Positions 1 through 11,540 of a stretch of DNA of 11,540 nucleotides are shown here, one piece after another; the first letter of the stretch is position 1; every line of letters starts with the position of its first letter. Both the position numbers and the translations under genes were made by a program. The stretch comes from a virus (Duplodnaviria; Heunggongvirae; Uroviricota; Caudoviricetes). The notes under the pieces were generated by a model, which did no database searches, was not told where the DNA came from, and saw nothing but the letters and a program-made list of their open reading frames with translations. The stretch spans positions 1 to 11,540 of the IMG/VR virus record IMGVR_UViG_3300029762_000045; one strand, 5' to 3'.

Positions 1-260
1 TATCGCCAGAACGCCAGCCCGATTTCCTTGCTGAATCCACGAACCTCTGGCAGGTACATGGCGTGGCAATCGAATGTCAGCGGCTGAATCTCCTGATAGT
101 AAACAATGCCGCCGAACTGCCCGTGCACGTTCACCTCAAAGTAACGGCAATCATGTTTATAGTCGTATCCATCACCGTTGTTGCTCCCGGCAATAATGTC
201 AGGGTGATTTCCGACTGCTTCGATCAAGTCGATGTTTCGCGTTGGTTTGAACTGAATCAT
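1..260 (-). CDS. Partial CDS, 5' end of the gene downstream of the tail needle (P22 gene 14 position); runs off the window
   Basis: Minus-strand ATG at 258-260 overlaps the needle stop (TAATG junction). The frame is open for 86 codons to the window edge, giving [38 protein letters not shown]... Assignment is by synteny only; I do not recognise the sequence itself. Confidence 0.55.
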   Translation of the reverse strand, partial: MIQFKPTRNIDLIEAVGNHPDIIAGSNNGDGYDYKHDCRYFEVNVHGQFGGIVYYQEIQPLTFDCHAMYLPEVRGFSKEIGLAFWR

Positions 261-1213
261 TACTGCTCCGCGATTATCTTGATGGTTGTGGCAGTAAACG
301 CCGCCCCATTTGACTGAATAGTTAACGTACTGCCATTTGTGGCAAGAAAGCCGTCTTTATCCACGCTGAAGAACGTAGCTAACAGGATGTTGTCGGTTGT
401 TGTCGCCGCATTACGACTGCTGACCAGTGTGTCAGGAACAGAGCCGGAAAAGGTTAGCTGCATTGACCTGTTTGCGGTTCCGCTGGGCCACGTCCCGACA
501 ATCGACAGCTTGAAGAACAGGGTTTTGTTCTCGTTGAACACAACCATCTTGTTGTTAACGGTGTCGAAGAATGGTGCCAACGAGCCGGATGACGGCGTGA
601 GCGTTTTCAGCAGGCTAACAAGGTTGGTCGGCGCTGTCGGGATGGTTACAGATACGCCAGAGTAAACAACCTCTGATTTCTTGCGCGTGGTGGCATACTC
701 AAGCGCAGATATTCTTGTTGAGTGATCACCAACTGTGCTTTGTAGCGTCGAAATACTTCCCTCTGCCGCTGTGAGCCTGGTATCAAGTGCGTCGATATCG
801 GTTGTATTCTGAGTTATGCGCGCATCATGGTTTGCTAACTCAGATTCATTGGCAGCAATTCGCGTCTCGTGATCAGCCAGCTCTGTTTCAGCAGCCGTAA
901 TCCTTGTTTCATGATCTGCAAGAGTGCTTTCCGCTGCTGCAATTCTATTTTCATGATTGATGAGAGTTGCTTCAGCAGCTTCAATTCTGGATTCATGGTC
1001 TGCAAGGGTGACATCCTGCTCATCGTTCCTGACCTGTGCATCATAAGCGCCCTGTCCGGCCTCGTTGGCCTTGTTAGCCACATTACCAACATCAGTACCC
1101 TGTGCGATAACGTAAAGCAGATACGACTGCGAGAAGATATTGCGTGGAAGGATTGATGTATCGAGCCGCGTAGCCTGGATGATCACCGGCACATTGAGAT
1201 TCGAATCCGCCAT
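260..1213 (-). CDS. 26: Tail needle protein (P22 gp26-like N-terminus, coiled-coil shaft, extra C-terminal knob domain as in Sf6/HK620-type needles)
   Basis: 317-aa ORF. The N-terminus [25 protein letters not shown]...[13 protein letters not shown] closely matches the P22 gp26 N-terminal domain as I recall it. It is followed by 14-residue repeats and a roughly 150-aa Ser/Thr-rich C-terminal domain absent from the 233-aa P22 gp26. Start overlaps the gp10 stop (TAATG). Confidence 0.9.
758..1009. repeat. Tandem ~42-bp (14-codon) repeats inside the needle gene, encoding the coiled-coil shaft
   Basis: Protein units [14 protein letters not shown] / [14 protein letters not shown] / [14 protein letters not shown] / [14 protein letters not shown] / [14 protein letters not shown] / [14 protein letters not shown]. 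On the DNA, related 42-bp blocks recur at about 840-881, 882-923, 924-965 and 966-1007, for example gtttcatgatctgcaag versus gattcatggtctgcaag. Confidence 0.7.
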
Positions 1214-2631
1214 TACTCAATCCTTATCTGGCAGCCAGACAGAGTGACAGGTGACTTCGTGATAACGCGCAATTTGAAGCCGACATTTTTCCTGATGCGC
1301 CCGACTCGCTTCCACAAAACGCGTTTGTCGTAAACGAACGGTTCATTCTGCTCAATAATCTGCTCACGCCCGTAATTTATGCCGTCAGTGGTTGCAGAGA
1401 GGAACAGGCGGTCGGCGTACTGAGCTACGCCAGTGGATGATTCCACCTCCAGATCGAAGCATCTGGCGTTATCCGCTTTGAACAGTGGAGTAAACAGCAG
1501 GTGTTCCTGTTGCTTGTCGTACTGGCTGCTGATGTCGAATTGCAATTTCCCGGTCACGGACTCCAGTTTATCGCCGCACGTTATCTGATTGCCTTCGTAA
1601 ATGAAGTCGATAGCGCGGTACACATCGTCATACAGTCCTGTTTTCAGCACACACCATTGCGGACCATTGGTGCTTGAAGATGCGTCGTACACGAGGACGT
1701 GGCGCGCAAGATGGATAATCAGCAACTCATGAGCATCAAATCTCAGAGACTCCATCACGCCATCAGCCAGTTCATCAGCAGTGTAGGAGCGGAGGATTTT
1801 CTCAATGCTCGCGCTGGCGATTGGTGATACCTGACCGGAGCCTATGATGTATACAGACGGCGCACCTGTTGCCGGATTGCTGATGAACGCATACGAGTCA
1901 GCAAACGGCGTTTTGCAGTAAGTCCCGGCAATGCCTTTCTGCACCATCAGTGATGGCTGTGCGACATACAAAGCGGCACCAACGGTGGTTGCACCTGTCA
2001 GGGAAAAATATTCAATCGTCGATGAGCCAAAGCAGACGATGAAGTCTCGCCATGTACCTATGCCGATGATGCCGTCCGGCTGAGACTCGGCACGATATTG
2101 TGCACTGTAGCGGTCAGGATGCGATTCATCTTCAAGGTCAGTGATAAACCATGAATCAGTGCCGTCTTTTGACCACGCATAACGCCCACGTAAGCGCGTA
2201 ATGTCGCGAACTGAACCTAACTCATACTGAGTGAATCCACTGTCTGTAGGCCAGTTTGAGACGGTTTTAACCGTGCCATCATAGCGATACTCGACCAGTT
2301 GACCATTAACGCCTACCGCCTGTGATGTCCGACCATGCGCCATTGATACACGACCACTTCCGGCAACGTCACCGACTTCACTTTCTCCTTTGTACAGCTT
2401 GCCACCACACACACGATAAACAGCACTCTGCGCCATGTTGTACTCGACGCCTCGCGATACTCCGTTCACATCAGAACGTTTGGCAATGCCCGGGAATGAG
2501 CGAAGATATCCGCTGCTGTTGAGGATTTCTTTGGGTGTAGCCAGCATATTCACTGGCAGATAGTCGATATAGTCGGCGTTTAGAAAGTCTTTGCCGACAC
2601 CTTTCATAAGCGGAAGTTGCTGAATCGGCAT
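1213..2631 (-). CDS. 10: Tail hub / head completion protein (P22 gp10 homolog)
   Basis: 472-aa ORF, the same length as P22 gp10, in the gp4-gp10-gp26 order. Start overlaps the gp4 stop (TAATG). Confidence 0.9.
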
Positions 2632-3131
2632 TATTCGCTCCCGTTATCGCAAGGTTCCTTCCGGTGGAAGTAATTCCAACCGTTCCACTTCGCCAACTGG
2701 TTACCGCTACCAACAGGCATACGGTTTGGATAACCGGACTTACATTTAGCGGCTTTTGCTCTGTCCATTGCAGACAGTTTGACGAGTCGCTCTTTCCCAT
2801 ATCTGGCAGTGGTTATAAGTTTTGCTGACGCTTCCAGCGCATAATCTGGAGCAATGCGGCAGGCAAGGTTGAAAATGACGGCATTGATAGCGTTATTTGA
2901 CAAACCGTGCTCATCGCCAGGATCCGGAGCGACATCTGCATCAGCAAAAATGTAGCCAACGTTGATACCAGGTGACGCATCACCGCCAAGCCATTCAGCC
3001 ATCATCATTTCAAGGTCGTTGACGCCGTCTTCCATAGACTGCGGTTCGACATCGGTTAACGTGGCATTTGATGCCACACCGAGCTTACGTAATGCCGCAA
3101 GAACTAAATCACCCTTCGTTGTCAGGTTCAT
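2631..3131 (-). CDS. 4: Tail adaptor / head completion protein (P22 gp4 homolog)
   Basis: Start chosen at the internal Met ([33 protein letters not shown]...), which aligns with the P22 gp4 N-terminus [33 protein letters not shown] as I recall it and gives 166 aa. An AAGGCGG Shine-Dalgarno-like motif lies upstream. The longer ORF start at 3197 would overlap the upstream gene further. Confidence 0.88.
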
Positions 3132-3702
3132 CTGCTGCCGCCTTAGGTTTTCGACTAGGCTTTTTACGCTGTTTTTCTTCTGGCTCTGGCTCTGCAATAG
3201 CCGGACGCAAACTCAGGAGTCGTCCAAGAACATCATTTGCTTCATGGCCATCCCACTCTTTCCCGAACTCAAGCTCAGTACCTTCAGGAAGGAACTCGAT
3301 TTCTTCAACAGGTAGGTGATAAGTGATTTCGCCTTCTGGAGTGGTGATACCAGCAATGATCCAGCCATCCCACTCTTCACCGTCACTGTGTTTGCGAGAC
3401 CACCACGAAAGCTCAGCGTAAGCATGCATCAGCGATGAGAAGAGGCGCACTCGGTGAGCGTAAAGCTCGTTAAAAGTGTGATAACCGTCGGACACTTCGC
3501 CCATATCAACTGGGGAAGTTTCACCTCCGCCAACACTCCCAATTTGATCACCAACAAGAGGATCATCAGGAACATCGTCAGGGTGCTTATACCAGCCATT
3601 TGATAAGTGCACAGCTACATCATCAGGATCAACGGTTTTCGTTTTCAGCTTGCGCCCCCAGATTTTGGTATCTCCGCCAGCCTGAAAAATCATTACGCTC
3701 AT
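3109..3702 (-). CDS. Hypothetical protein, 197 aa, acidic and Trp/Asp/Pro-rich with a Lys/Pro-rich C-terminal tail; extra gene between coat and gp4
   Basis: Open frame with ATG at 3700-3702 preceded by GGAGAT 6 nt upstream, beginning [19 protein letters not shown]. The listed ORF extends to 3882 but that portion overlaps the coat gene and lacks a start signal. The 3' end overlaps the gp4 start by 23 nt. No family recognised. Confidence 0.7.
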
Positions 3703-3711
3703 TGGTATCTC

Positions 3712-3740
3712 CAATAGAAAAGGGAGCCGAAGCTCCCTCT
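3712..3740 (-). terminator. Intrinsic terminator-like hairpin immediately downstream of the coat gene
   Basis: Minus-strand RNA reads AGGGAGC-UUCG-GCUCCCU (7-bp GC-rich stem extendable to 9 bp, UUCG tetraloop) followed by UUUUCUAUU. It lies between the coat stop (3746) and the next start (3702). Confidence 0.55.
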
Positions 3741-3745
3741 GGTTA

Positions 3746-5041
3746 TCACGCAGTCTGGTTAGGCAGACCAACACCAATTGCCTCTGGTCGTACAGCACAT
3801 GCTGAATACCACACAGCAATACGGCACTTACCAGACAGAGTGTTGATATCACCCTGCGTTGCGAAGATGCCGTTAACACCAATGCCAGGAATGCTGAAGG
3901 AAGACGTTTTCATGCCAGCAAACAGTTCATGGGTTACCGGGATCGGCTGAGACAGCAGACGGATTGAGTCATCAGCCCAGAACACGTTAGCGGTGGTTGT
4001 TGCCACGTTCAGAACGTTTACCGGAGTGGTATCAGCAAGAGAGGTGTTTACGTTAGCGTAAGCCTTCTCTTCTTTTGTCAGTGACGCGTCATCCAGTGCA
4101 ATCGGCTTCGGCGTGATTTCGATGTGAGTACCATCGATCACACGGGTGATTGAGAAAGTCGCATCATCAGTCAGCACGTTCTTCGCCATCTGAGACAGGA
4201 ATTTCACACCAGTGAAGCTGATTTTGTCGCCGCGCTTAAATCCGGTGGTGGAGGATACGGTCACCGTTGCAACACGGTTGTCGACGTTCTCCTTGTTACC
4301 ATCGGTATCAAGGGTGTATGCCTGCGGCTTAAACTTCTGCGCTCCAGTCACAGTTACACCAGTAGCGGTTGACTTAGTAACTGCCGGAAGTTTCGGTGAG
4401 CGAAGAATTTCATCAAAGCCAGCAATCTGACGCTGAATAGTACCGTTGCGATACGCTTCTTCAGGAACGCGCCCAAAGATGTCACCATCTACCAGGTTGC
4501 GGCCTGCTTTGCGGTAATCGTCAGGGTTCAGGAAGTAACTGATGCCCATATCGCGGTTTAGCTCACGGGAGAACATCAGGCGCTCTGCATCAGACACAAA
4601 ATCCCAGCCAGACAGGCCAGTAGATGGACCAATTGCGCGGGTATCGTGAACAACAAGTGAGCCCATTTCGGTTGCCTGTTTGGCAATTGCTGACTCAATG
4701 TTATTCGCCAGTTTTTTGGCGGATGCCTGGATGCGGCGACGGTAAGAACGCTCATCACGCAGGTCATCTGCACGAAGCTCGAAGAAATCGTTATCCGGAT
4801 CACCCATGTTGCATTTCACGGAGAGTTCCAGAATCCCGGTTGCGTTGCCAGTTAAATCCCAGCCAGTCTGGGTTGGAGCTTCCTGCTCAACAGGCATCCA
4901 CACGGTGTTGCTTGAACGCTGCATGGATTCTGCCGGAGGGGTGTATTTTGTCACTTTGGACGCCATTGGCGTCAGGTTCTGGACGGTTTCGATGATTTCA
5001 TCCAGAGCATACGTGACCAGTTGACCTTCATTTAATGCCAT
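3746..5041 (-). CDS. 5: Major capsid (coat) protein (P22 gp5 homolog)
   Basis: 431-aa ORF starting [20 protein letters not shown], with high identity along its length to P22 coat protein as I recall it. Start overlaps the scaffold stop (TAATG). Confidence 0.95.
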
Positions 5042-5952
5042 TATCGAATTCCTTTATTCAGTTGCGCCTTAAGCTTGCGGTACGTCTCTACATCCCCTTT
5101 GTTTGCTGCCGCCTCCATCTGCTTTTCAATCGCAGAGATATTTGCAGCAACAGCATGTCCCTGAATGGGTTCATCAGGTAACGGGGCTTCTGAAACAGGC
5201 TTGGCTCTAGGCTTGAGAGTTAAACGCTCTGACAGTCGAGTGAGTTCAATCAGCGCTGATTGCCCGTCCATCGCCAGCAACTGGCGTGTTTTCTCAGGAT
5301 TAGCACCAAGGTGATACATGAGAGCGGCGGATTTCTCCGGGAAGAGGCGCATGATGTCGGCACCGACTGCTGGCGGCACCAGTTGCATGAATGCATCCTC
5401 TTTCTCCTGATAGTCAGGGATATTGAGCTTTTCCGCTGCGTCGTAGTGCTTACGGGCTGCCTCGACGTATTGCGCTGATTGCTGGGTGAACTCCTGAGTT
5501 TTGCGACCCTGCTCGGCAACAGCCTGGCTTCGTGCGTCCATAGCCTTGATCTGCCATTCACTGTTTGCCTTCTGGAAGGCAGCCAGTGCGCGGCTCTGGT
5601 CATAGTCGTACTTAGCCAGTGCATCTTCGGAAAGATAATCGTTAGGGTCTGGTTGTTTTGGTAACTCAGGGTTCACCCGCAGGTGCTCCGGCAACTCTCC
5701 ACGCTTAACCGCTTCCATCTGCTGCTCAAGCTCACGCTGGCGTTTGCGTTCGATGCGGCGACGGGCAAATTCAGCATTAGTTGCCGGGTCTTGTTTTGGT
5801 TTCTCATCGTCTTTCAGGACAATCTCGAAGCCTTCTTCCTGACCTGCGTTGTCGTTGGCATTATCGACAACTAAGCCATCAGCAGATGCCGCTGCATGAT
5901 TGCCGGGCAGGGTTAATTCTTCAGAAGCCTGAATGTCGGTGGTTTGGTCCAT
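5041..5952 (-). CDS. 8: Scaffolding protein (P22 gp8 homolog)
   Basis: 303-aa ORF, the same length as P22 gp8, with recognisable similarity ([21 protein letters not shown]..., C-terminal ...[11 protein letters not shown]...). Sits between portal and coat. Confidence 0.95.
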
Positions 5953-5965
5953 GATTAACTCTCTC

Positions 5966-8131
5966 TTATTGAGGTGTCTCGGCTACTCCGCCGGAGGGGA
6001 TTTGAACTTGACGCATAAGATTCGCGAAATCCATGCGTTGTGAATGAGTCTGGTCTGCATCTTTAAGAAGCAGCTCAGCGTTAGCACGAGCATCTTTGCT
6101 GCGCTGTTGCTGGAATTGACCTACGAGCTTGAGGTACTCACGCAGTTCTGCCTGCTTGTCGAGGTCCATATTGTTGAAGATTTCTGCAATCTTCGCGGCG
6201 TTGAGTTGGTTTTGGGCTTCAACCTTGGCAGCTTCAACCTGAATCTGCGCCTGTTGGTTCTCTGCCTTGAGCAATTCAGCCTGACCTTGCAGAAGGATAC
6301 CCTGCGCCTGAATTTGCTCTGCTGATGGCTGCTGCGGCTGTTGTTGTGCCTGCTGTACCATCTCCATCTCTTCAGGTGTTTCTGGTTTCTTCAGCCCCAT
6401 CATCACCAGTTGCTTGTTCGCGTACTCTCGCATCATCTCGACGCCTTTGCCGTCAAGCAGCGTGAAGTATTGCAGCATCAGCATCTGGAACTCTGGAGTA
6501 CCTTGCGGAACCTTGGTGAGCAACTCCTGAATCTCTGCGCGGTTCTGTTCCTTCATGCTCTGGAAGGATGGTCCGACGTCTGTATAGCACTCATAGCGAC
6601 CGCGAATGTCGTTGAGTGTGACCACATTGCCGGACTGGTAATCGACAACTTGCGCATAGAGTTGAACGTCTTTCTCGCTTCCATCTTCAAGTGTCAGCGT
6701 TACATGACGAGGAACGTCATAAATATCGTTGACCATTGAGGCATAAATCTCGCCATCACGTCGCATTGCGGTAGCCAGGTTATCCTGAAACACGTATGTC
6801 TCAAGGTCTGCCCGCATGTTCAGTTGATTGACGGTATCGAAAGCGACCTGACCATTTGCCGCCTGCGCATCCACGCCAAGACTAGCCACCTCTTTCACTG
6901 CGTTGGTGGCAGCCTCAAGCATGTAAGCGTTGGCTTGCGGCACTTCAGGGTTTTCCATGTAGGAGATTGGACCAATCGGCAGGTCGTTACCGTTTTCATC
7001 GGCCTTGTTCTGCAGATAGTACGGATAGTCATCATTTCCACCGTACATATATTCGTAGCCTTCGATTTGCTCAGGGAAGAAGGTAGGTTTCTTCTTCGGT
7101 GAACGAGCAACAATATCGGCGTTGAACGACATAATCATGTTACGAAGGCGCTGACCGTCTTTCGTCAGCCTTACCACTCCTTCGTAGCACTCCTTGTCAC
7201 CAGCGAATGACCATTCGCCATACACTGGAACGATTGGGATATGCTCTCCAGCTATCTTCTCGCGGTCTTTCAGTATCTGCGTGCAGGTGACGATCGACTT
7301 ATACACACGCCGACGCTTCACCTTGCGCTCTGCTACCTTAATGAATCCACGATTAGCCAGGTCGTCGATGACGTCTTTGATATCCTGCTGGTAATAGCTG
7401 ACCGGCTCGCCTGTCAGCGGGTCGCGGTAGATGAAGACCTTCTCCTTCTTCTCTTCTACCTCGTAATACTCAGCGACGTAGACGACATCATTCGACACCC
7501 ACGGGAATAGCCATGTATCGTTAGGATTCTGGAAAGATGGCAAGGTATCCGGGTCAATACCGTAATCCTCTGCGAACTCTTTCCAGCCATTGCGCGACAA
7601 GGCGTTAATCACCGTGCAATGCTTAGCGTCGCTCTTATCCATCTGCTTGCTGTTGGCGTCCCATATAACGTGTGAGCAAGCTTCATGGATTGGCAGGCGT
7701 CGGATTACCTGATTGTTGCTTGTTGGGTCGTTGTCTTCGTACTGCGTGACCAGACGCCATGCACCAACGCCGGACTCTATCTGCTCACGAACGCCAACGT
7801 TAACGGCAATTTTTGCCGTGTTATGGCGCATATCAGTACGATACATCCCCATCAGCACATCGGCAGCATCAGGATTAGCGCCGTCTTTTGGTCTGAAGAG
7901 AACGTCGATAGGGTTCCGGCGCATCTCTGCGACCAGCTTCCTGACCACCGGGCGGACAACATCGAATTGTCCGCGATATTGCAGGGTGGTGTAGTTTGAT
8001 AGCCAGTCATCCCATTGCGACACTCGGCTAAAATACAGGTCATTTGTCGCCTCGGTTCTGGCTTCATCGCTCGCCATCCAGTCTGCGTCAAACTTACACA
8101 GAATGGAATTGAGTCTGTTTTCGTCGGCCAT
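5966..8131 (-). CDS. 1: Portal protein (P22 gp1 homolog)
   Basis: 721-aa ORF (P22 portal is about 725 aa) with a Gln-rich C-terminal helical region typical of the P22 portal barrel. Immediately follows the large terminase. Confidence 0.95.
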
Positions 8132-9631
8132 TTAAGTTCTCCGTGCGATGGGCCTGATTGGGGCTGGTATCTTTTTCTCTTTTGGCTTTTTGATGTCGCG
8201 CATCATTTTTGCGAAGCGGCGCATCATGTATGCATAGCGAACGGCGGATAGCACGTCGTCGTTAAGCTTGACGATTTTCCCGTTTTCATCACGGTGATAG
8301 AGGCGGAACTCCTCAAAGAATGGCTCACAGGTGTTGAATACTTTGAAGCGACCGTCGAGCATCATGTCTCGCAATTCAGTGATGCCAGGCTCAACAGCAT
8401 TACCGCCATCAGGCCATGTCGCATGCTCCTGCAACATCATAAAACCAGCGTCCGCGTACTGCCATTTGAGCTGCTCACCGCCGCCCTTCTCGTGCTGGTT
8501 TCCGTCATGAGGCCATGCGGTTGGCACTTTATGCGCCCATGATTTAACGGCTCCCCATGCCTGAACGGCTGTTTTTTCTTTCGCCTTCCAAACGCGTGAA
8601 AGGTAGATTATGTCTGCGTCCTTATCCCACCAAAGCTGAACCTGCGCCTGTGGGTGATCCCATCCGAAATCCATCCCGCCAATTACGTAGAAGTGATCAG
8701 GACACTCGAACGGCTGACACTTAATTGTCTCTTCCGGTATCTGGAAGATTCGACCACTACCCATCGTAGGAATACCGCGAGCACGCGCCTCTCTCTCATG
8801 CTCAGGATAGGATGCGATGATTTGCTCTTTCTGCTCGTCGGTGTAGTGCTCAGCGTCATAGATGGTCATGTTGACCACTTTCTGCGACTTGCTGGGATTC
8901 TTCAGGAACTTGGTAACAACGTCAGACATCCCCATCAGCGGGGTAAACGTCAGAATTGAGAATTGCCCGTATTTGTTGGTACGGGTAAGACCTTCGCCAT
9001 AAATGCTGTATGGTGGCTCTTCGTCAAACCACACGCCGTGGATTGTGTCACCCTGCCAGCGAGCGCGGCCTTGCGAGTATGGTTTGAAGTAGCAGATTGA
9101 AATGCCATCTTCAACGCCATCAGCCGTGTGATGCTTAACCAGAAGATGATCAACAAGGTTCGGAAAGAAAGGAGACTTCTTCCAGCTAATGATGTCTTCT
9201 TTAGGTATGGAACCGTAGCCTGGCTCATCATTCTCTTCGATACGACCACACAGGATGCGTTGAGTCGTTTTGGTTACAGTCTCGTTTGTCTCGCCGCCAA
9301 TCCAGAAGACAACAGGCTCATAGAAACGCTTACCTTTCCACTCCCCACCATATTTACCATCAGCCGGATAGCCTTTTGTTCCCGGATAACGCCCGGTAAG
9401 GTGAAACGCGACTTCAGCAGCCCCAGTAAATGACTTACCAAGCTGGTTACCAGCCATAAAACAGCGCTCTGGATAGTCATGCCCGGCGTCGATGAACTCA
9501 CGCTGTTTGCTGTATGGCGTAAATTCATATAGCAGGTGTGTGTTCCGGTAGTTCTCTTCTTCTTCGAGTAGCTCGAGCAATTCGATTTGCTCTTCGTCGC
9601 TCAGGTTATCAAGAATCGCGTCCAGTTCCAC
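8132..9631 (-). CDS. 2: Terminase large subunit (P22 gp2 homolog)
   Basis: 499-aa ORF, the same length as P22 gp2, starting [28 protein letters not shown]. Overlaps the 3' end of the small terminase by 23 nt. Confidence 0.95.
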
Positions 9632-10097
9632 GGTTGAATAGCTCCTTGATACGAGAGCGTCGCTTATCGCGATCTCCCTTATCAGGTGTCACGTCTTCAA
9701 CTTGCGACTGCTCTTTGAGGCCCAAATCACGGGCGATGATGTTAGCGTTGAGAAGGTCAGCGGCTGCGCCAGAGAATTTCTGGTCGTAGATGACCTGCTC
9801 TGCTCGCGTAACGACTTCAGATAAATCTTCTCGCAGGCGATATGTGCGCCATGTTTCAAGCGTCACATCAATGAACAGAGTGAGGCCTGTAATAGTCATC
9901 GCTCGCATCTTGGCGATAGGCTCTTGTATCACTTCACCCTGATACGAGAACGCCTTCATCTCCCATAGCGGGTTAGCTTCTACCCACTCGAAGTATTCAC
10001 AACAAGCAGCCCACAGCGCCTCAGGCGATTCGAATTTAGGATTTCGCCCATGACTACTGCGGGCCTCCCAAAATCGGTTGCCCTTTGGTGCTGCCAT
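9609..10097 (-). CDS. 3: Terminase small subunit (P22 gp3 homolog)
   Basis: [50 protein letters not shown]... is essentially the P22 gp3 sequence. Start placed at the second ATG to give 162 aa as in P22; the ORF track begins two codons earlier (MNM, 10103). Confidence 0.93.
9805..9830 (-). other. pac site (headful packaging initiation site) inside the small terminase gene
   Basis: Minus strand reads GAAGATTTATCTGAAGTCGTTACGCG, encoding gp3 residues EDLSEVVTR. This matches the P22 pac sequence as I remember it (about 22 bp, GAAGAtTTATCTGAAGTCGTTA), at the expected place in gene 3. Confidence 0.7.
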
Positions 10098-10120
10098 ATT
10101 CATCTCACTTAATTGTCATT

Positions 10121-10300
10121 TCAGGTTAAGGACTCTTTCGCGCCTTCAATCAGTGACTGCTTCAGCAATTCGAGTGTGCCAATCGCCTCGCATAAACTGA
10201 TTTCACCATCGTAATCATGGATGACGCTTTCAAGTCGCTCGTATAGCTCTTGAGTAATTGGGAATTTCTTCTCCTTACCAAGATCAACGACGCTTGTCAT
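10121..10300 (-). CDS. Hypothetical small protein, 59 aa, acidic and predicted helical
   Basis: ATG at 10298-10300 with AGGA 8-11 nt upstream; TGA stop at 10121-10123, 17 nt before the terS start region. Translation MTSVVDLGKEKKFPITQELYERLESVIHDYDGEISLCEAIGTLELLKQSLIEGAKESLT. Below the 60-aa cutoff of the supplied ORF track. Confidence 0.5.
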   Translation of the reverse strand: MTSVVDLGKEKKFPITQELYERLESVIHDYDGEISLCEAIGTLELLKQSLIEGAKESLT

Positions 10301-10309
10301 AGAGGATTC

Positions 10310-10597
10310 CTATAATTTTGAATATCCAGACTCAAATACCTCAGCAGGAGAATATGATTCATATCCATCCTCATAGACAACGTAATAGCCTCCAGACATT
10401 GGTCGGTGCTTACAGATATATTCCGCGCTAACATCAAATGCTGCGTATTTCTTATCATCCGGATGAATAATTGCCCCATAACTAGAAGAGCCAGTCTTAC
10501 CAGACTGATCTGGGTTTGGCTTATGTTCTATAGAGCCAATCTTCAGGGCGCGAACTTTTTTGTGGCACTGGTATCTCGGCATTTCTTGTTCAGTCAT
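10310..10597 (-). CDS. Hypothetical small protein, 95 aa, with two Cys-His-containing motifs
   Basis: ATG 10595-10597 lies 3 nt after the stop of the upstream ORF, with GGAG 10-13 nt upstream. Translation MTEQEMPRYQCHKKVRALKIGS...YICKHRPMSGGYYVVYEDGY... No family recognised. Confidence 0.6.
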   Translation of the reverse strand: MTEQEMPRYQCHKKVRALKIGSIEHKPNPDQSGKTGSSSYGAIIHPDDKKYAAFDVSAEYICKHRPMSGGYYVVYEDGYESYSPAEVFESGYSKL

Positions 10598-10600
10598 CTC

Positions 10601-10843
10601 TTACACTCCGGTAGTGAACAGGTCTAACGCTTCCTTCGATTTACGCACCGCTTCGATAGTGCGGGTCGTGATATCTGAATTAGCGCCGCCTGACTGGAAG
10701 TGAATTTTGAATAGCTCAAGCTTCAGCTCATCAGTGCCAATGAATTGAAATGCTTCTTCTGCGGCTGCGTTCTGGTTCATGACCAGTTTGTAAATCTCTA
10801 ACTGGAATTTCTGTTCTTCAGTCATGGGAATAATCTCTGCCAT
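10601..10843 (-). CDS. Hypothetical small protein, 80 aa
   Basis: ATG 10841-10843 with GGAG about 7-10 nt upstream; first gene of a tightly packed three-ORF run leading into terS. Normal GC content. Confidence 0.6.
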   Translation of the reverse strand: MAEIIPMTEEQKFQLEIYKLVMNQNAAAEEAFQFIGTDELKLELFKIHFQSGGANSDITTRTIEAVRKSKEALDLFTTGV

Positions 10844-10950
10844 TGTTGGCTCCGTTTATCCGTTAAAAGGGATATCAGTTAAGTTATCCCGTGTAGGGTA
10901 TAAGCCATTATCAAAGCCACTCTGTAGGGAATGGCTTTTGTGATGGCAAT

Positions 10951-10972
10951 AAAAAAGGCCGACTTAGCGACC
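10951..10972 (-). terminator. Putative intrinsic terminator downstream of the AT-rich small gene
   Basis: Minus-strand RNA reads GGUCG-CUAAGU-CGGCC (5-bp stem including one G-U pair) followed by UUUUUU, beginning 18 nt after the TGA stop at 10990-10992. Confidence 0.4.
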
Positions 10973-10989
10973 AATTTAATAATTAATTA

Positions 10990-11232
10990 TCAATAATGTG
11001 GGAATTGGTTACTATTTTGCAAGATAACCCAAGATGGGCGAAACAAGTCAAAAACATTGATGCTTAACAGGGCTTCATTTATTGATTTTTTTTCATCCGC
11101 AGAAACTCCGCGTCCTGCATTTGACATTACAAGCTGACCATTAACTATTTCACTACATTGTTTTACATAACTACCTGGCGGCATTGATTGAAAGTTACAT
11201 GTACCATTTATTATTTTATCAATTTCACTCAT
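10990..11232 (-). CDS. Hypothetical protein, 80 aa, in a markedly AT-rich segment (moron-like)
   Basis: ATG at 11230-11232 with GAGG 8-11 nt upstream; TGA stop at 10990. Visibly A/T-rich relative to the flanking structural genes. Translation MSEIDKIINGTCNFQSMPPGSYVKQCSEIVNGQLVMSNAGRGV...; no signal peptide. Confidence 0.55.
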   Translation of the reverse strand: MSEIDKIINGTCNFQSMPPGSYVKQCSEIVNGQLVMSNAGRGVSADEKKSINEALLSINVFDLFRPSWVILQNSNQFPHY

Positions 11233-11451
11233 ATCAACCTCGTCTAGTTGTTCGTCATAGATTCAGTGGCTGGCGGTGACGATTCCGCTTTTCGGGAGCT
11301 ACCCTAGCCACTGTTTTATTCTATCCGATGTCTTTCCATCAGTCCGCCACCACAAAGAATCTTTTTTGCCATAAGGCTGGAGGTTCATCTTTCAGTGGCT
11401 GCCAGTGTTATTTCCCTACTTACTGGCTTGGGTTGTTTCGCTGTACTGCCG

Positions 11452-11540
11452 TTAATTAGTGAGTCCGGGGATTACGGTTTGCCCGTGCTGTTCAAGGCGT
11501 TCAATTCTCGCCAGTAGCTGAGGCTTCTTAATTTTTCCCC
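11452..11540 (-). CDS. Possible 3' end of an upstream gene (partial, identity unknown)
   Basis: One minus-strand frame is open from the window edge for 28 codons (...GKIKKPQLLARIERLEQHGQTVIPGLTN) to a TAA at 11452-11454; the other two frames stop within a few codons. Too short to identify. Confidence 0.3.
   Translation of the reverse strand, partial: GKIKKPQLLARIERLEQHGQTVIPGLTN

Follow-up and report, generated by a model that had tools for sequence, protein, structure and literature searches.

In phages P22, HK620, and Sf6, two small genes (orf80 and orf59c in P22) lie directly upstream of gene 3, the small terminase gene terS; they adjoin each other, 1 nucleotide (nt) apart and in different reading frames. 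In phages L and ST64T, the slot directly upstream of gene 3 holds dec, the gene for the capsid decoration protein Dec. Here, we describe the same slot in an 11,540-nt stretch of viral DNA (Caudoviricetes; IMG/VR record IMGVR_UViG_3300029762_000045, positions 1 to 11,540; hereafter, the window), in which three small open reading frames (ORFs), orf80, orf95, and orf59, are arranged in a single reading frame. The window resembles P22 in the two outer genes, their order, their position directly upstream of terS, and their place in the late operon, whereas the 326-nt orf95 module between the outer genes is not found in P22, HK620, or Sf6.

A sequence-only reading of the window, made without database searches, had favored three coupled small genes, and had also named a split ancestral gene of 240 codons and regulated stop-codon readthrough as possible origins of the shared frame. 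Our comparison of related loci indicates, with a probability that we put at roughly 85%, that orf80, orf95, and orf59 are three independent, separately translated small accessory genes that occupy a variable slot within the late operon of a prophage resembling P22. The sequence-only preference for three small genes is supported by the presence of an SD motif and an ATG for each gene, by separate families with independent distributions, by purifying selection, and by the annotation of three separate coding sequences in a close relative.

Results

Three genes in one reading frame

All three genes are on the minus strand. The first, orf80 (positions 10601–10843), encodes a DUF2560 protein of 80 amino acids (aa) and ends with TAA at 10601–10603; orf95 (10310–10597) encodes a 95-aa protein with a predicted OB-like beta-barrel and ends with TAG at 10310–10312; and orf59 (10121–10300) encodes a 59-aa protein, predicted to consist of two helices, and ends with TGA. 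At junction 1 (10598–10603), the TAA of orf80 is followed by one spacer codon, GAG (3 nt), and then by the ATG of orf95. At junction 2 (10301–10312), the TAG of orf95 is followed by GAA TCC TCT (9 nt) and the ATG of orf59. All five segment lengths are multiples of three, and the three ORFs are therefore colinear in one frame, as the sequence-only reading had stated with the same protein and spacer lengths. The Shine-Dalgarno (SD)-like motif that it had reported at each restart was likewise confirmed, and all three starts have one: GGAG at 10853–10850 for orf80; GGAG at 10609–10606, within the final codons of orf80, for orf95; and AGGA at 10311–10308, overlapping the TAG stop of orf95, for orf59.

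The common frame of the three ORFs is not more than chance would yield. The window has 11 pairs of adjacent genes on the same strand, and a common frame is seen in 3 of them (portal/terL and the pairs at junctions 1 and 2), which matches the expected 1/3; two such junctions in succession are expected about once per ten gene triples.

An E. coli prophage with 98.9% identity to the window shows the late-operon order antiterminator, holin, lysozyme, Rz, small ORF, KilA-N, DUF2560, orf95, orf59, terS, terL, and portal, and the Prokaryotic Genome Annotation Pipeline (PGAP) annotates the three genes there as three separate coding sequences, followed by a terS of 162 aa. Among 5,426 complete E. coli genomes, part of the region was matched in 2,490 and the whole arrangement in 49.

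Identity of the outer genes

The claim that none of the three proteins is recognizable was wrong: orf80 is DUF2560, orf59 is phrog_3546 (P22 orf59c), and orf95 is phrog_11049. The orf80 protein matches Pfam DUF2560 (PF10834) at model positions 1–72 of 72 with an E-value of 1.1e-43 and 147.7 bits against a cut-off of 25, and it also matches phrog_571. It is a homolog of P22 orf80, HK620 hkbM, and Sf6 gene 67, and its homologs are restricted to Enterobacterales. The orf59 protein matches phrog_3546 at positions 1–59 of 59 (E = 2.4e-41) and is a homolog of P22 orf59c, HK620 hkbN, and Sf6 gene 68, with synteny to P22, HK620, and Sf6. All 72 of its 72 homolog clusters consist of stand-alone proteins of 37–72 aa from Enterobacterales. 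The AlphaFold2 model of orf59 is a helical hairpin (H17–28 and H36–58) with a mean confidence (pLDDT) of 77, and a Foldseek search of this model against the PDB gave no fold match. None of the three proteins matched NCBIfam, and DUF2560 was the sole Pfam match among them. No published function for DUF2560, orf59c, or hkbM/N was found in the literature.

Pairwise ratios of nonsynonymous to synonymous substitution (dN/dS) ranged from 0.04 to 0.41 for the three ORFs, with values of 0.04–0.41 for orf80 and 0.04–0.17 for orf95. From these ratios, all three ORFs are real coding genes under purifying selection. In some prophages of the window type, orf59 is broken: a TAG follows codon 37 in locus L150, and the N-terminus is disrupted in locus L151. 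These interruptions suggest that orf59 is dispensable.

Comparison with related loci

The blastn alignments of the window with P22 (L003), HK620 (L182), and locus L107 stop at position 10606 and restart at 10279, and megablast against P22-type phages gave two pieces that covered 57% of the query and skipped the middle ORF. The segment between these points (10280–10605, minus strand; 326 nt) replaces 27 nt of the P22-type locus. Its contents are the end of orf80 (last codon plus stop), the entire orf95, the spacer of 9 nt, and the seven opening codons of orf59, which are swapped in the process (MTSVVDL here versus MVRVINL in P22-type phages). Outside this insert, the outer ORFs show 96–99% nucleotide identity to P22 and HK620.

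The arrangement varies further among other phages. In phage Dewey, orf80 is followed after a 2-nt gap (TAA-AC-ATG) by an orf95 homolog with 68% identity, out of frame, and then by an unrelated gene. In phage Bas106, most of orf80 has given way to a Rha-like gene, after which come orf95 and orf59; downstream of the Rha-like gene, orf80 is reduced to its last 32 codons (L001 501–604). A 148-aa E. coli protein in the NCBI collection (P0059) joins a Rha N-terminal domain in frame to the final 47 residues of orf95. In both P0059 and Bas106, the recombination junctions are located inside these small genes. The order is reversed in locus L039, where orf95 lies upstream of orf80. The TAA-NNN-ATG form of junction 1 is retained in loci L040, L041, L042, and L046, and L046 keeps the frame and spacer lengths of the window type despite 12–27% divergence at the protein level. 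In L040–L042, the place of orf59 after orf95 is taken by a 123-aa ORF with an HExxH motif. This ORF (2300–2671 in L041) carries a metalloprotease-like HEACH motif, gave no match in a Pfam search, and is followed in all three loci by a 58-aa lysine-rich ORF.

To survey these architectures, 215 IMG/VR loci were fetched with the three proteins as baits, and 139 distinct locus sequences were classified, so that the following counts describe variety and not prevalence. The P22 type (orf80, 1 nt, orf59 in frame +1) was found in 48 of the 139 and the window type (spacers of 3 nt and 9 nt, one frame, stops TAA and TAG) in 30. orf80 occurred without either partner in 41 loci, and five, including L040–L042, had orf80, 3 nt, and orf95 without an intact orf59. 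The Dewey type and the reversed order were each seen once, and 11 contained distant orf95 homologs in other contexts, with orf95 alone.

These layouts bear directly on the proposal that two nonsense mutations broke up one ancestral gene of about 240 codons, leaving the three ORFs as pseudogene fragments. The colinearity of the ORFs, with just stops and one to three spacer codons between them, is what such a history would leave, and fused reading frames are present on a few contigs. However, each piece forms a family with its own distribution: the outer genes adjoin out of frame without orf95 in P22, HK620, and Sf6, and in unrelated phages, orf95 homologs stand by themselves or have other partners. 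Each ORF also has its own SD motif and ATG and is under purifying selection. The fused alleles described below are single-base variants within the separate-gene population (more than 97% identity, on one or two contigs each), no stop-to-stop ORF covering two modules was found in 218 loci, and no 240-aa product with all three modules was found among 5.8 billion protein clusters. The split-gene proposal is refuted by the layouts of P22, HK620, Sf6, Dewey, and L039, and we give it almost no credence. The alignment of related P22-like loci that the sequence-only reading had suggested thus separates the genes, as their frames differ and P22, Dewey, and L039 break the colinearity.

Stop-loss fusions in natural prophages

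A search with the readthrough translation of the locus against the 5.8 billion protein clusters recovered five proteins of 158 aa that are 97–99% identical to orf95 + X + ESS + orf59, where X is Q, E, or W. The contig DNA showed that the TAG stop was changed to CAG, GAG, or TGG in otherwise intact P22-like prophages, and the TGG allele was present in two separate sequencing runs. The five fusion proteins were found on seven contigs, one or two each, versus at least 1000 contigs for the exact orf95 protein. The same search also gave one 140-aa orf80-orf59 fusion, produced by a frameshift in a P22-type locus. At junction 1, an exact look-up identified a 177-aa orf80-Q-E-orf95 protein (TAA to CAA; P0467), which is built on a 78%-type allele, occurs on one contig, and is known from the protein record alone; none of six orf80-orf95 stop-loss variants that were built on the commonest orf80 allele turned up in such a look-up. 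The 90%-identity cluster of orf95 also includes 80-aa DUF2560 proteins, and the bridge is this single 177-aa protein. The stated size of the orf95 cluster (275) therefore mixes two unrelated families.

These results show that the in-frame layout turns any single-base loss of either stop into a fusion with the neighboring gene, and that such fusions occur sporadically in natural E. coli prophages. The fusion alleles make up well under 1% of occurrences and are one base away from the separate form, with no sign of an ancestral or selected state.

The sequence-only reading had raised the possibility of fusion products made by regulated stop-codon readthrough. Fused ORFs do arise, through rare stop-loss alleles; readthrough itself received no support. 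Programmed readthrough of the TAG, and perhaps of the TAA, would yield a minor fused product such as orf95-orf59, and the layout would be kept for its sake. Consistent with this, every one of the 30 distinct window-type sequences, and L046 as well, preserves the frame and the lengths of the spacers, the persistence of fusion alleles in otherwise intact prophages implies that the fused protein is at least tolerated, and C-terminal fusion is the commonest kind of fusion in the orf95 family (58 of 146 representatives; see below). In close relatives, however, conservation of the 3-nt and 9-nt spacers is explained by common descent, and the in-frame relation is lost where the junction differs (2 nt in Dewey, 1 nt in the P22 type), so that the frame is not conserved across relatives. 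The genes after orf95 in Dewey and L040–L042 are unrelated. The 9 nt between the TAG and the next ATG leave no room for a stimulatory structure; a general Rfam scan, with no dedicated fold run at the junctions, matched no family in the region at the gathering score, and the window contains no tRNA. Readthrough is also disfavored by the nature of orf59, which is unlike any partner domain of the orf95 family: hhalign gave a probability below 1% against the nine largest clusters of the 189 N- and C-terminal extensions of this family, and neither phmmer of orf59 against all 189 extensions nor the fold search produced a significant match. We therefore consider programmed readthrough improbable, and retain three separately translated genes as the best explanation of the locus. 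Alignments of orf80 against the fusion-partner clusters likewise gave hhalign probabilities below 1% throughout. As a separate candidate, a hidden helical sponge akin to Sequestin, Acb2, or Acb4 was considered for orf59, in which case orf95 and orf59 would form a split fusion; this candidate was rejected, as phmmer, hhalign, and Foldseek against the PDB were all negative.

Fold and family of orf95

The orf95 protein belongs to phrog_11049 (E = 1e-54) and is a stand-alone member of a large phage domain family for which neither Pfam nor NCBIfam has a model. Its AlphaFold2 model, with a pLDDT of 80.6, is a small beta-barrel with two helices. The top PDB match in Foldseek was Dec of phage L (6e3c; E = 4.4e-4, template modeling (TM) score 0.62, 24% identity), and the sequence profile of orf95 against the PDB pointed weakly to Dec as well (E = 0.024). 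Alignment of the orf95 family with Dec by hhalign gave a probability of 89% and an E-value of 2e-6 over Dec residues 7–96, which include the capsid-binding domain with an oligonucleotide/oligosaccharide-binding (OB) fold, at 24–25% identity. The secondary-structure elements of the model follow the order b0-b1-b2-b3-a-b4-b5-a, as do those in the published description of Dec (PMC6449081). Homology of orf95 to the OB-fold domain of Dec (residues 12–89) was thus found. The C-terminal trimerizing spike of Dec, a three-stranded beta-helix at approximately residues 90–134, is absent: orf95 has no residues beyond 95, where the C-terminal helix of the OB domain ends, and no match to the Dec C-terminus was found among the 189 extensions of the orf95 family. 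Structural core residues (P, GGY, and FE..Y) are conserved in both the orf95 family and Dec, whereas the polar family residues H12, K13, H64, D77, S81, and S83 are not conserved in Dec.

A second relationship was found with the N-terminal domain of gp68 (the anti-Thoeris sponge RyR Tad) of Pectobacterium phage CB1, to which hhalign aligned the orf95 family over gp68 residues 2–71 with a probability of 94.5% and an E-value of 7.5e-8. This gp68 N-domain is a domain-swapped dimer in the crystal (bioRxiv 10.64898/2026.06.04.730250). The domain of orf95 is therefore homologous both to the capsid-binding OB domain of Dec and to the dimerizing N-domain of RyR Tad.

A HMMER search of 1.84 billion representatives at 50% identity returned 3,537 orf95 relatives at E ≤ 1e-3, of which 1,216 pass E ≤ 1e-10. 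Among the best 146, 62 were stand-alone, 58 had a C-terminal extension, 24 had an N-terminal extension, and 2 had both. Near-invariant residues of the family are Y9, H12, K13, K19, H64, D77, S81, and S83. When the best 147 relatives, an unbiased sample, were scanned, 15 carried a Pfam partner domain: Sequestin (PF21825) in five, Acb4 (PF13876), Tad2 (PF11195), and the Acb2/Tad1 hairpin (PF24729) in three each, and DUF2158 in one. Sponges of immune signals thus account for 14 of the 15 recognizable partners; C-terminal examples are P0007 (with Tad2), P0029 (with Sequestin), P0026 (with the Acb2/Tad1 hairpin), and P0014 (with Acb4). A first search, which was biased in length, adds T7 gp5.9, a RecBCD inhibitor, and Uma2 to the partners. 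Matches of orf95 in BFVD include phage proteins annotated as RyR-domain and MazG proteins.

A tblastn search of orf95 against isolated phages yielded 15 records, and the family is much richer in metagenomes and prophages. The neighbors of homologs in other phages are mostly early or replication genes; in Ralstonia phage GP4, the homolog lies between the portal and major head genes. In Pseudomonas phage Dolphis, the 164-aa family member gp96 (L229 3489–3983) is labeled "capsid decoration protein" and lies among small hypothetical genes of early type. This name probably stems from a remote Dec match and does not constitute evidence. An identity of orf95 with Lockin was considered and set aside on the basis of description: orf95 occurs in INPHARED phages, whereas Lockin is said to be a beta-rich hexamer that INPHARED lacks.

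Additional features of the window

The downstream neighbor of orf59 is terS (9609–10103 as listed, minus strand), which encodes a small terminase of the P22 gp3 type (Pfam GP3_package, E = 4e-33; phrog_606). Its start is most likely the ATG at 10097 (MAAPKGN..., 162 aa) and not that at 10103 (MNMAAPKGN...), because P22 gp3 and the PGAP annotation begin there.

Upstream of orf80, an 80-aa ORF (10990–11232, minus strand) matched no Pfam, PHROG, or NCBIfam entry. It is preceded by a promoter-like site (11237–11210, 10/12) and followed by a terminator-like hairpin with a T-run (10972–10957), and it looks like a self-contained inserted gene at the place where related prophages carry KilA-N or Rha. 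Just upstream of it, a full-length match to the int-alpA RNA model (RF02996) is located at 11252–11314 on the minus strand (42 bits against a gathering score of 35.8; E = 5e-6).

Two further genes were noted. Between the coat gene and the gp4 homolog, an ORF at 3109–3882 (minus strand) encodes a WDGH domain (PF25311, E = 2e-39); its true start is probably further in, as the listed TTG start overlaps the end of the coat gene. The tail needle gene (260–1213, minus strand) encodes an Sf6-type needle that has a knob at its C-terminus (PF16532, E = 3e-107), and the coiled-coil shaft of this protein contains a long run of near-repeats (heptad-like units ADHETRI / ANHDARI).

Discussion

The three ORFs in the window are best explained as separate genes in a variable slot that is bounded by the lysis cassette on one side and the small terminase gene on the other. 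The resident pair of this slot would be orf80 and orf59, and the module at 10280–10605 with orf95 is likely to have recombined between them, bringing its own junctions: TAA-GAG-ATG upstream and TAG-GAATCCTCT-ATG downstream. The lengths of the gaps at these junctions happen to be multiples of three, and this is probably the whole cause of the colinear frame. Since the module replaces 27 nt, the shared frame appears to be a property of its junctions and not a relic of one long gene. On the polycistronic late mRNA, coupled re-initiation at the SD motif and ATG of each gene would yield the separate proteins. Two points weigh against this explanation: separate translation and the absence of readthrough are deduced from sequence and comparison, and the IMG/VR sample was collected with the three proteins themselves as baits.

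In itself, the shared frame is most likely an ordinary consequence of dense gene packing and mosaic recombination within an accessory-gene slot of a phage, and P22-type genes with an inserted accessory gene that is in frame by chance belong to what is already known. Mildly new are three things: how large the orf95 family is and how its members are fused, the homology of this family to the OB fold of Dec, and the natural stop-loss alleles. The locus also offers a concrete, small case in which in-frame neighboring genes give rise to fusion proteins through single stop-loss mutations in natural populations.

The function of orf95 can be approached from its relatives. With some hesitation, we favor the view that orf95 may be a cytoplasmic accessory protein of counter-defense, acting as a self-associating module or as a binder of some ligand, and not a capsid decoration protein. 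This view is favored because relatives are fused to sponges, because the invariant polar residues are conserved across phages with unrelated capsids, because the trimerizing spike of Dec is absent, because homologs elsewhere lie mostly among early or replication genes, and because the GP4 capsid structure reports just gp2 and gp1 (PMC9698820) despite the presence of a homolog in the head-gene region.

Several observations weigh against a counter-defense role. The argument proceeds from guilt by fusion and from the slot; the late operon is a position where early-acting counter-defense genes are usually not expected; the closest solved structure belongs to a capsid decoration protein whose gene fills this slot in a sister phage; and in the sole experimental test of this domain, the N-domain of CB1 gp68 on its own had no apparent activity against type I Thoeris (bioRxiv 10.64898/2026.06.04.730250).

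Alternatively, orf95 could be a structural late gene whose product decorates or cements the capsid, as Dec does in phage L. Dec is the best fold match in the PDB and is also reached by the sequence profile, the order of secondary-structure elements is shared, phages L and ST64T have dec in this slot, with gene 3 directly downstream, orf95 is part of the late operon, and the GP4 homolog lies between the portal and head genes. Yet orf95 ends with the OB domain and lacks the spike that makes Dec a tripod, members of its family carry cytoplasmic signal sponges or the RyR Tad sponge as fusion partners, and its near-invariant H12, K13, H64, D77, S81, and S83 are kept across unrelated capsids but not in Dec. 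The GP4 capsid structure names only gp2 and gp1, and other homologs are found among replication or early genes. We therefore regard decoration as unlikely, and counter-defense continues to be our tentative preference.

A more specific proposal, in which we place less confidence, is that orf95 could be a stand-alone member of an undescribed counter-defense family that is related to Dec and serves as a fusion hub for at least five sponge families. If so, the junctions in this locus, in which only stops interrupt the frame, would show how such fusions are born: one point mutation would be enough, and the 158-aa and 177-aa alleles exist. Moreover, orf95 or a fused allele would then neutralize a bacterial defense.

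Comparison with described systems places orf95 among three groups. (i) Like Dec of phages L and ST64T, it has an OB-fold domain with the same order of elements and is encoded just upstream of terS; Dec has the C-terminal trimerizing beta-helix and lacks the H/K/H/D/S residues of the family, whereas the reverse is true of orf95. In Sf6, the slot also holds gene 66, an Acb4-family gene (PF13876, E = 4e-35), directly upstream of genes 67 and 68. (ii) Like the N-domain of the RyR Tad gp68, orf95 contains the motifs YQxHKxVWA and GYxVVY...SxSP..F..G. The gp68 domain is shorter, without the central loop, and is fused to an RyR-Repeat12-like sponge domain for glycocyclic ADP-ribose (gcADPR); orf95 consists of the N-type domain only, and the Repeat12-like gcADPR-binding domain is absent from it. 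(iii) In the preprint by Tal et al. (bioRxiv 10.1101/2025.07.12.664507), PF13876 is given as Acb4 and PF21825 as the Thoeris sponge Sequestin, and Sequestin is described as having been discovered through its fusion to Tad2 and Acb4. Relatives of orf95 carry Tad2, Acb4, Sequestin, and Acb2/Tad1 domains in the manner of these multi-domain sponges, whereas orf95 itself matches none of them; no Pfam match to PF11195, PF13876, PF21825, or PF24729 was obtained at E ≤ 1 for orf95, orf59, or orf80. By the route that led to Sequestin, namely fusion to a known sponge, the orf95 family would be a candidate for counter-defense, and it links a capsid decoration protein to the sponges of immune signals.

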